Below are positions 3,001-6,000 of a DNA stretch of 9,267 nt, piece by piece. This DNA comes from a virus (lineage: Duplodnaviria; Heunggongvirae; Uroviricota; Caudoviricetes). Numbering within the stretch: position 1 is the stretch's first letter; each line of letters begins with the position of its first letter. Position numbers: made by a program. The stretch is taken from the IMG/VR virus record IMGVR_UViG_2690316142_000005. One strand, written 5' to 3'.

Positions 3001-6000
3001 CGGGGTTGCTAATGGACGATGAGCAGTTTGATGAAATCAATATCGTTCGTGGTCAGCCAGTATCTGGTGGACGTCTGGGGGTGAAGATTTACCCCATAAT
3101 GCATGAAGAGCAGGTCAAAAAATGAAACTGGAAGATTTACCGAAATACTACTCCCCAAAATCCCCTTGCCTGACCGATGCATCGGCCTCAACGTCAAAAG
3201 ATGCGCTGAGTATCACTGATGTGATGGCCGCGCAGGGCATGACACAGAATCGGGCTGAGATGGGGTTTTCTGCGTTCCTGGGGAAAATGGGCATCAGTAT
3301 GAATGACAGGGCGCGGGCAACAGAATTACTGGCAGATTATGCACTCAGTCGGTGCGATCGTGTGGCGGCGTTGAGAAAACTTCCGGCAGAAATAAAACCG
3401 GTAGTGATGCGCATTATGGCTTCGTACGCTTTTGAGGATTATGCCCGCAGCGCAGCGAGTAAAAAGCAGTGCCCTTGTTGCTATGGGGAAAAATTTATTG
3501 AAAGCGTAGTTTTTACAAACAAGGTCCAGTATCCGGATGGTAAGCCGCCGGTATGGGCAAAGTGTACGAAAGGTGTGTATCCGTCTTACTGGGAAGAATG
3601 GAAAAAAGTCAGGGAGGTGGTAAAAGTTGCCTGTCCGGAGTGTGGCGGAAAGGGTGAGGTTTCCACCGCCTGTAAGGATTGCCGTGGGCGTGGTGTCGCC
3701 ATTCATCGTGAAGAGTCGGTAAAACGTGGTATGCCTGTTATCAGAGACTGCCAGCGTTGTGGTGGTCGTGGCTATGAAAGACTACCATCAACGGAGGCAT
3801 TTAATGCTATATGCGAGGTGACAAACCAGATAACACGCGCGTCATGGGAAAAAACAGTTAAGAAATTTTATGATGCGCTGGTGACCCGGTTTGATATTGA
3901 AGAAGCATGGGCTGAGCGGCAGTTAAAAAAGGTAACTAGGTNNNNNNNNNNNNNNNNNNNNNNNNNNNNNNNNNNNNNNNNNNATGGGCGTTTTATGCCT
4001 GACGTTAGAAGAGTTTCTACAACCCGCCGCCGAGCGGGTTTTTTATGACTGAAATCGCGTCAGTACAGTAAACGCGCTGGTGGCGGTGAATACCTGTCTT
4101 TCAGCTTGCTGGCTTTTTCGACAAGAGTTATTGGTGTGTCACGTTAACCGGAAAAGGAAAAGACATGCTAAAACAGCAGGATATGACAGAAACCGCCAGA
4201 GTGGTGTTTAATGAATTAAGCGTTACCGAACCGGCGACAGTCGGGGAGATAGCGCAGAATACTTACCTTTCACGCGAACGCTGCCAGTTAATACTGACCC
4301 AGCTGGTTATGGCGGGTCTGGCAGACTATCAGTTCGGTTGTTACAGACGCCTTCCGCAGTGAAGGCTTTTTTATTTGTGGTAAATGGGCGGCTGGTGGGT
4401 GTTAGGGGCACCCACCAGCCATCTGCTCATGCGTTGGGTTCACAAGCAAACCTCAGGCCCACTGCTTTGCGCAAAAGCAGAATGAGCCTATCAGAGACAG
4501 GCTTAATGATCCATGCTTAATACTGTAAAAATATCCAGTTGTGAGTTAATCAACGCCGACTGCCTGGAATTTATCCGGTCGTTACCCGAAAATTCTGTTG
4601 ACCTGATAGTCACGGACCCGCCGTACTTTAAAGTGAAGCCTGAGGGCTGGGATAACCAGTGGAAGGGCGACGATGATTACCTGAAGTGGCTGGACCAGTG
4701 TCTGGCGCAGTTCTGGCGGGTGCTGAAACCTGCCGGAAGTCTTTACCTGTTCTGTGGTCATCGCCTGGCATCTGATATCGAAATCATGATGCGTGAACGC
4801 TTCAGTGTGCTGAACCATATTATCTGGGCGAAGCCGTCCGGACGCTGGAACGGATGCAACAAGGAAAGCCTGCGGGCGTATTTCCCCGCCACAGAGCGCA
4901 TTCTGTTCGCGGAACATTATCAGGGGCCGTATCGTCCGAAAGATGCCGGGTATGCGGCGAAGGGCAGTGCACTGAAACAGCATGTGATGGCCCCGCTGAT
5001 TTCTTACTTTCGTGATGCGCGAGCTGCCCTGGGGATAACGGCAAAACAGATTGCAGATGCCACAGGAAAGAAAAACATGGTGTCGCACTGGTTCAGTGCC
5101 GGTCAGTGGCAGTTGCCGAATGAAAGCGATTATCTGAAATTACAGGCGCTGTTTGCCCGGGTGGCAGAAGAGAAGCATCGGCGTGGTGAACTGGAAAAGC
5201 TCCACCACCAGCTGGTGGATACGTATACCTCACTGAACCGGCAGTATGCGGAGCTGCTGAGTGAATATAAACATCTGCGGCGGTATTTTGGCGTGACGGT
5301 GCAGGTGCCGTATACCGATGTGTGGACGCATAAACCGGTGCAGTTCTATCCCGGGAAACATCCGTGCGAAAAACCGGCAGAAATGCTGCAGCAGATAATC
5401 AGCGCTAGCAGTCGTCCGGGTGACCTGATTGCAGATTTTTTCATGGGGTTGGGTTCGACAGTGAAAGCGGCACTGGCGCTCGGGCGTCGTGCAATTGGCG
5501 TTGAGCTGGAGACTGAACGTTTTGAGCAGACGGTTCGGGAAGTACAGGATTTAGTCAGCCAGAACGGATGATATTGAAGAATTAATTACGCGTCGTTATT
5601 ATGCGGCTCCCGGCCCTTTAGCTCAGTGGTGAGAGCGAGCGACTCATAATCGCCAGGTCGCTGGTTCAAATCCAGCAAGGGCCACCATCACAAACCGCCA
5701 TTAGCTTATCAGGAAGAGCAGACGACACGATAACAGGGTTGTTGGTGCGGGGGCGGGTCCCCGATGGCGGTCCATTATCGGTATTCAGCGTTGTTAGCTC
5801 AGCCGGACAGAGCAATTGCCTTCTAAGCAATCGGTCACTGGTTCGAATCCAGTACAGCGCGCCATATTCATTCTTCCAGATTCCTTCCGGCAGAGCCTTA
5901 TACTGAAATATACCTGGCTCAGGATATTGTTGAAAATATTTTATGTTTGTCAAAAATAAAAGTTCTGTTAAGTATTGATTGAGTGTTTGTTATACGGTCT

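Follow-up and report, generated by a model that had tools for sequence, protein, structure and literature searches.

The window analysed here, a stretch of 9,267 nucleotides (nt) from the IMG/VR virus record IMGVR_UViG_2690316142_000005 (Caudoviricetes), carries on its + strand a gene of 273 codons plus a stop (3122-3943) which is identified as that of a Q antiterminator by Pfam (Antiterm), by its match to the Q protein of phage λ (λQ), by PHROG 127 and by an annotated coding sequence (CDS) in Escherichia coli TOE17. The gene starts with an ATG at 3122 which overlaps the TGA stop of rusA (ATGA, 3122-3125), the Holliday-junction resolvase gene at 2745-3125 (+; Pfam RusA E=2.1e-16, present in the list of open reading frames and annotated RusA in TOE17 and strain 131), and rusA in turn is preceded by a gene for a DUF968/HNH-type protein (1686-2744). 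Read by analogy with λ, the order DUF968/NinG-like, RusA, Q would be that of an early rightward operon with Q as its last gene. Immediately after the gene come a run of 42 N (3942-3983, +), the tail of a pause element and an intrinsic terminator. The best explanation of the whole, to which we give a probability of about 90%, is that 3122-3943 encodes a late-gene antiterminator of the Qλ family (PF03589) from a lambdoid prophage.

Extent of the gene and the run of Ns

The best match to the region was E. coli TOE17, 99.2% identical across it, in which an 822-nt CDS annotated 'antitermination protein' (WP_115208794.1) aligns base for base with the window and gives a 273-amino-acid (aa) protein whose last residues, KKVTR, end at 3940. 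This alignment places a TAA stop at 3941-3943, of which just the t of 3941 is readable in the window, 3942 and 3943 being N. An earlier note on this DNA had the start at 3122 right, and the 42-N run that it described is real (3942-3983), but the end that it gave for the open reading frame (ORF), 4048, was an artefact of translating the Ns as X, relatives placing the stop at 3941-3943. Its view that an assembly gap interrupts the gene and hides its C-terminus also has to be given up because near-identical genomes show the KKVTR end at 3940 followed by the stop, so that, judged from these alignments, the gene is uninterrupted and the C-terminus of Q complete. A promoter, which it had also supposed to be hidden by the Ns, is indeed found there in relatives. 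Going by those relatives, what is lost in the run, besides the rest of the stop codon, is thus not coding sequence but the late promoter together with the Q-binding site and the greater part of the pause element.

Among the loci with the same flanks (n=17, TOE17 and 16 others), 37-45 nt stand where the window has Ns, the 45-nt version, AACAAGGTTGATTTTTCCGGAATCTGTGGTAAATTCGTCATAACG, being found in 10 of the 17. Locus L015 is 100% identical to the window from 3984 to 5440 and has exactly 42 nt in place of the 42 N, and because the length of the run equals that between identical L015 flanks, it looks more like a masking or contig-join quirk than a sized assembly gap. The 42-nt stretch of L015 itself opens with a single N (L015 position 1610), at a short AGGT...AGGT repeat, and the window has one other, lone N at 6767. 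The IMG/VR scan gave only loci of 93-100% identity, which were used for gap closure and not as a sample of diversity. The gene is a very common one: the 1.5-kb Q region was matched in 3147 of 5426 complete E. coli genomes (1078 of them covering at least 80% of the region), often several times per genome, and thousands of database entries show 98-100% identity to the protein.

Family membership and zinc motifs of the protein

The protein scored 183.7 bits (E=6e-55) against Pfam Antiterm, PF03589, for which the cut-off is 26.7 bits and which is the Qλ family (PMC9388147). A phmmer search matched it to full-length λQ (PDB 7ubm_Q) at E=1.5e-40, query residues 1-113 aligning with λ 1-113 and 182-273 with λ 116-207, a collinearity that takes in both the N-terminal nozzle-forming segment and the C-terminal helix. 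Its fold matches that of λQ, with a four-helix body containing a helix-turn-helix and with a zinc-ribbon arm; in λQ the helix-turn-helix 'body' is made up of residues 61-113 and 153-207 and the zinc-ribbon 'arm' of residues 114-152, and the arm, body and nozzle mechanism has been described (PMC9388147). PHROG 127 ('anti-termination protein Q-like') was matched at E=1e-110 in a single stretch over 252 of its 253 profile positions, whereas the match of λQ to this profile is split in two, and the long form therefore fits it better than λQ itself does. No match to Q21 (PF06530) or Q82 (PF06323) was found in the Pfam scan at E<=0.01. The identification of a Q-like late antiterminator, already made in the earlier note, agrees with all of these matches.

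The same note had reported three or four CxxCxGxG repeats in the gene after rusA, and the four CxxC of the protein do comprise three canonical repeats, CPECGGKG (motif 2; aa 171-178, nt 3632-3655), CKDCRGRG (motif 3; aa 184-191, nt 3671-3694) and CQRCGGRG (motif 4; aa 210-217, nt 3749-3772), together with a degenerate one, CPCCYGEK (motif 1; aa 117-124, nt 3470-3493). By chance CxxCxGxG is expected at a mean of 0.002 per protein, and three or more occurred in none of 200,000 composition-preserving shuffles, while the eight Cys are all retained in 108-109 of 109 full-length homologues of 54-98% identity. Motifs 3 and 4 delimit the λ-type zinc-ribbon arm (3671-3772, +), as seen in the alignment to 7ubm and 4mo1 and in the multiple alignment: C184/C187 and C210/C213 align with λ C118/C121 and C144/C147 at an identical spacing of 22 residues (CxxC-22-CxxC) and are invariant in 109/109 homologues. 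The roles of this arm in λ have been set out previously (PMC9388147). Where the note contrasted DnaJ-type repeats with the λQ zinc motif, the knuckles themselves are confirmed, but the opposition is a false one because the λQ zinc ribbon consists of two CxxCxGxG knuckles (CRDCHGTG...CGRCKGVG) which align, position by position, with motifs 3 and 4 of Q here.

The other two motifs belong to a module of 68 residues, aa 114-181 (3461-3664, +), which is an insertion relative to λQ, skipped by the HMMER alignment to it and placed just before the zinc-ribbon arm. In order, it contains motif 1, what is predicted to be a long β-hairpin (residues 125-136 and 159-170 form strands in the AF2 secondary structure, the connecting loop being of low confidence) and motif 2, and it may thus form a second zinc ribbon. 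Across ten phage Q proteins in the multiple alignment motifs 1 and 2 occur or are lost together, and the module most likely binds a second zinc. Since the λQ equivalents of motifs 3 and 4 bind its single zinc and motifs 1 and 2 come and go as a pair, the pairing would be tandem (1+2, 3+4) and not interleaved as in DnaJ.

Sequences downstream of the gene

In relatives, the stretch corresponding to the N-run plus the visible sequence reads TTGATT - TTTCC(G/C)GAATCTGTGG - TAAATT - 7 nt - AA(C/T)GATGGG, a PR'-like promoter beginning 5 nt past the stop codon and so falling, here, within the Ns. The run would therefore cover a -35 hexamer TTGATT, a spacer TTTCCGGAATCTGTGG that is the candidate Q-binding element (QBE), a -10 hexamer TAAATT with TG in front of it and the start site, and would end 4 nt into the pause element AAYGAT. 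Visible in the window are just ATGGG (3984-3988, +), the tail of AAYGATGGG and a match to AACGATGGG of λ PR', and the terminator. The gap-closed promoter, TTGATT-16 nt-TAAATT followed by AAYGATGGG, compares with TTGACT-17-TAAATT-TGACTC-AACGATGGG in λ, where the 17-nt spacer is TATTGAATAAAATTGGG; λ and the relatives correspond in both hexamers, in the TG ahead of the -10 and in the σ-dependent pause element (SDPE), and differ in the spacer. This correspondence between λ and TOE17 was read by anchoring on TAAATT and AAYGATGGG, MAFFT having misaligned the intergenic regions. The QBE of λ sits in the promoter spacer (PMC9388147), and TTTCCSGAA, at the start of the PR' spacer, is the candidate for it here.

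The terminator tR' (AACCCGCCGCCGAGCGGGTT and then a T-run; 4021-4044, +) was found both in the terminator scan and by RNA folding, which gave the PR'-tR' leader a terminal hairpin and an otherwise ordinary stability (z=-1.5). No Rfam family matched the leader; terminators equivalent to tR' are annotated in SfV and ES18. In the absence of Q, a leader RNA of ~60-65 nt ended by tR' would be expected. The cassette of promoter with embedded QBE, pause element and terminator, reconstructed here from flank-identical relatives, lies right after Q in all the near relatives and, at species level, in 28-34 of 38 relatives, which supports a predicted Q loading site directly after the gene.

For a sample of diversity one genome per species was scanned, yielding 38 loci of four-CxxC Q and 35 loci of other Qλ subtypes. 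Within 200 nt after the stop, TTTCCCGAA (with at most 1 mismatch) was found at 34 of the 38 four-CxxC loci, as against 0 of the 35 others, and at 28 of the 38 it stood 28-29 nt upstream of AACGATGGG (28 nt in all but one), the consensus of the four-CxxC loci being TTTACT-TTTCCCGAATCTGTGT-TAATTT-N7-AACGATGGG. The pause element AACGATGGG is kept at 23 of the 35 loci of other subtypes, with spacers that differ, for example GTGGCGGAA. Because the spacer co-varies with four-CxxC Q, the loading site would lie right after the gene and the spacer would act as a subtype-specific QBE. Three-CxxC Qλ proteins (L130-L137, L139, L143-L144, L148, L154, L159 and L161) have a distinct conserved spacer around GTGGCGGAA / GTGGCGAAA and share the same AACGATGGG pause element, a pattern suggesting that throughout the Qλ family the type of QBE goes with the type of arm. 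Q homologues were also seen on two contigs with unexpected labels, one of 572 nt assigned to Actinomadura rugatobispora (L165) and one of 647 kb, at its end, assigned to Chryseobacterium sp. (L141). An enterobacterial prophage gene would not be expected in these taxa, and one possible explanation is that those assemblies are contaminated or misassembled.

Past tR' the first gene (4165-4362, +) encodes a 65-aa protein of PHROG 331, function unknown, with a weak TrmB-like winged-helix match (E=0.003), and a second terminator follows at 4349-4372. This gene likewise follows Q in TOE17, strain 131, the Stx2a phage EH1910 and SfV. In TOE17 and strain 131 the order then continues with a DNA methyltransferase gene, tRNA genes, STnc100, iraM on the - strand, holin and lysozyme; EH1910 shares this order from Q through the 65-aa gene and the methylase gene to the tRNAs, and then has stx2AB between the tRNAs and iraM. 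Its Q gene, quuQ, is 91% identical to Q here, and that of phage mEp460_ev081 98.9%.

The phage tRNA cluster of the window lies at 5612-5687, 5788-5864, 7971-8046, 8054-8130 and 8144-8220, and contains genes called tRNA-Met (CAT) by ARAGORN and tRNA-Ile by RefSeq, as well as tRNA-Arg (TCG) and tRNA-Arg (TCT). Two copies of the small RNA (sRNA) STnc100 were found, the first at 6561-6750 (+; Rfam RF02076, 132.4 bits against a gathering score of 47; terminator 6720-6741) and the second at 8297-8486 (+; RF02076, 133.6 bits; terminator 8456-8477). A motif scan gave no QBE and no SDPE match in either copy. An association of STnc100 with prophages, and its frequent position close to PF03589 Q genes, have been discussed (bioRxiv 10.64898/2026.05.13.724894), and the terminators of the two copies would, by analogy, be further ones in the path of a Q-modified polymerase. 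The copies fill the slot between tRNAs and iraM that holds stx2AB in EH1910 (L005). The segment of methylase, tRNAs and STnc100 is tandemly duplicated in the window (4409-5877 versus 6768-8233, joined by the N at 6767), copy 1 resembling the strain 131 allele and lacking the tRNA-Arg TCG gene, and copy 2 resembling the TOE17 allele, that is, alleles of two different prophages. The duplication junction (6560-6980) is spanned, at a coverage of 80% or more, at 0 places in the complete E. coli genomes searched (n=5426), and the duplication is probably a scaffolding artefact.

The iraM anti-adapter gene (8512-8847, -) is antisense to the late transcript, and Q-modified polymerase would transcribe across it. 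At the other end of the window there is a hok/sok-type toxin-antitoxin locus, with sok at 783-958 (Rfam sok, 112 bits) overlapped by an ORF at 896-1108 (+) for a 70-aa Mok/Hok-like protein, annotated hokD in strain 131.

Mechanism, alternatives and comparison with known systems

Drawing on homology with λQ, the protein would be produced from the early rightward operon, with Q as its last gene, would bind, via body and arm, a QBE embedded between the -35 and -10 hexamers of PR', and would capture σ70-RNA polymerase paused at AAYGAT. Together with NusA, the N-terminal segment of Q would then refold into a nozzle on the RNA-exit channel (PMC9388147), and the modified polymerase would pass tR' and the terminators after the 65-aa gene, the tRNAs and STnc100 into lysis and morphogenesis genes, where without Q just the short leader would be given by PR'. 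The PR'-derived sRNA StxS of Shiga-toxin (Stx) phages is an analogue of this leader (PMC7547250).

Several points weigh against this interpretation. The promoter, the QBE and most of the pause element are absent from the readable letters of the window and are supplied by relatives, and the TTGATT/TAAATT promoter, which has a TG extended -10, matches the consensus at 8 of 12 positions, under the threshold of 9 in the promoter scan. The modelled structure was read at the level of secondary structure, and the zinc pairing is a proposal from homology and alignment; for the long-arm (four-CxxC) Q subtype no experiment, whether a structure or a binding study, was found in the searchable literature. 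Some carrier prophages, such as that of TOE17, are degraded, and hence this copy may be silent.

That last point leads to the alternative which we take most seriously, though we regard it as unlikely, namely that the gene is a remnant of a cryptic prophage, whole but inactive, or that its product, when expressed, works above all as a toxic, genome-wide antiterminator, as has been reported for AntQ of Gifsy-1, and not as a dedicated late switch. The large number of E. coli genomes matched (3147/5426), often with several copies each, and the truncated neighbours of the TOE17 copy would fit such a remnant, and overexpression of a Q-like prophage protein has been found to cause global read-through and growth arrest (PMC4825925). 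However, conservation across genera extends to the ORF, the terminator and the promoter/QBE/pause cassette jointly, close relatives of the gene are found in the sequenced phage mEp460_ev081 and in the Stx2a-converting phage named above, and AntQ may be of another Q subfamily. Less probable still is a second possibility, proposed in the earlier note, that Q loads at distal promoter-terminator elements (6521-6766 and 8257-8502) and not after its own gene. These elements do lie downstream of Q on the + strand and do end in strong intrinsic terminators (6720-6741 and 8456-8477), but they are the known sRNA STnc100 (Rfam 132-134 bits), the first of them belongs to the probable scaffold artefact, neither TTTCCCGAA nor AACGATGGG, alone or combined, is matched in them or elsewhere in the visible window, and in relatives the conserved cassette immediately follows Q.

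Hardly credible at all is that the product is a DnaJ-like zinc-finger chaperone, or some other non-antiterminator zinc protein, which happens to follow rusA. Its cysteine motifs give a match to DnaJ_CXXCXGXG (PF00684; E=1.9e-6), PF00684 is listed for many Q homologues in precomputed tables, and there are weak matches to DnaJ_bact (TIGR02349) and to anti-TRAP; however, the PF00684 match scores 28.4 bits against a cut-off of 32.7 and spans ~48 residues, that to DnaJ_bact scores 27.9 bits against a cut-off of 377, and λQ likewise gives a weak DnaJ_bact match. The Pfam scan of the protein showed neither a J-domain nor the DnaJ C-terminal client-binding domains, Foldseek gave DnaJA2 at E=0.9, and the whole protein is collinear with λQ and matches it in fold. 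A chaperone identity was rejected, the matches being sub-threshold, local and common to λQ. One 58%-identical homologue from Serratia quinivorans (P0033) is named 'chaperone protein DnaJ' by its source, a point that could be counted for the chaperone; the name is probably a misannotation arising from the CxxCxGxG repeats.

The reading of 3122-3943 as a Qλ-family late antiterminator is thus preferred, and what was correctly spotted in the earlier note is an unremarkable gene, widespread in E. coli prophages, for a λ-family Q with a probable second zinc-binding module. Gene, family, annotation and genomic setting are already known and it has little discovery value; the value is one of annotation, in that the ORF ends at 3943 and not 4048 and that the distal elements are STnc100 sRNA genes. 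This type of Q would control stx2a in some Shiga-toxin phages. Modestly new are two things, the promoter spacer that goes with this subtype and the putative second zinc module, itself uncharacterised, and the co-variation of spacer and four-CxxC Q offers a hypothesis for Q/PR' specificity among co-resident prophages. It is conceivable, although we would not give it even odds, that the long-arm module is an extra DNA- or RNA-polymerase-contacting element which specifies the distinct QBE TTTCCSGAA and so insulates prophages in poly-lysogens, perhaps including Stx2a phages with this Q, from cross-activation by λ-type and other Q proteins.

Compared with known systems, Q here shares CxxCxGxG zinc-knuckle repeats with anti-TRAP and with the cysteine-rich domain of DnaJ (PF00684), which like Q has four. 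The first motif of Q lacks the final Gly, and the motifs are spaced by 50, 9 and 22 residues, where those of E. coli DnaJ are spaced by ~13, 18 and 10. The zinc centres of DnaJ are interleaved (1+4, 2+3), unlike the tandem pairing proposed for Q, and the remainder of the protein is λQ, with no J-domain. Q21 (PF06530) and Q82 (PF06323) do the same regulatory job from the same genomic position and have, unlike Q here, unrelated folds according to the literature (PMC9388147).

Among the closest known systems is λQ (PDB 4MO1, 7UBJ-7UBN), which has the same Pfam family, whole-length collinearity, the C-terminal ...VTR and the same gene position, and in which promoter, AACGATGGG pause element and terminator likewise follow the gene in that order. 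It has 207 aa as against 273 here, the extra length being the 68-residue module with two more CxxC before the arm; the promoter spacer, the candidate QBE, is TTTCCSGAATCTGTGG here and TATTGAATAAAATTGGG in λ, and the terminator of λ lies ~190 nt downstream of the start site (L002) where the leader here would be ~60-65 nt. Also among the closest are the long-form Qλ proteins, namely Q of mEp460_ev081, quuQ of EH1910 and Q of mEp237, phiEt88, SfV, ES18 and Fels-1. In those of SfV, ES18 and Fels-1 (250-271 aa) the insertion is shorter or differs in part, some having CxC for one CxxC, and their promoter spacers differ from that of Q here, while the genes of mEp460_ev081 and EH1910 are followed by the same downstream genes as the gene described here.

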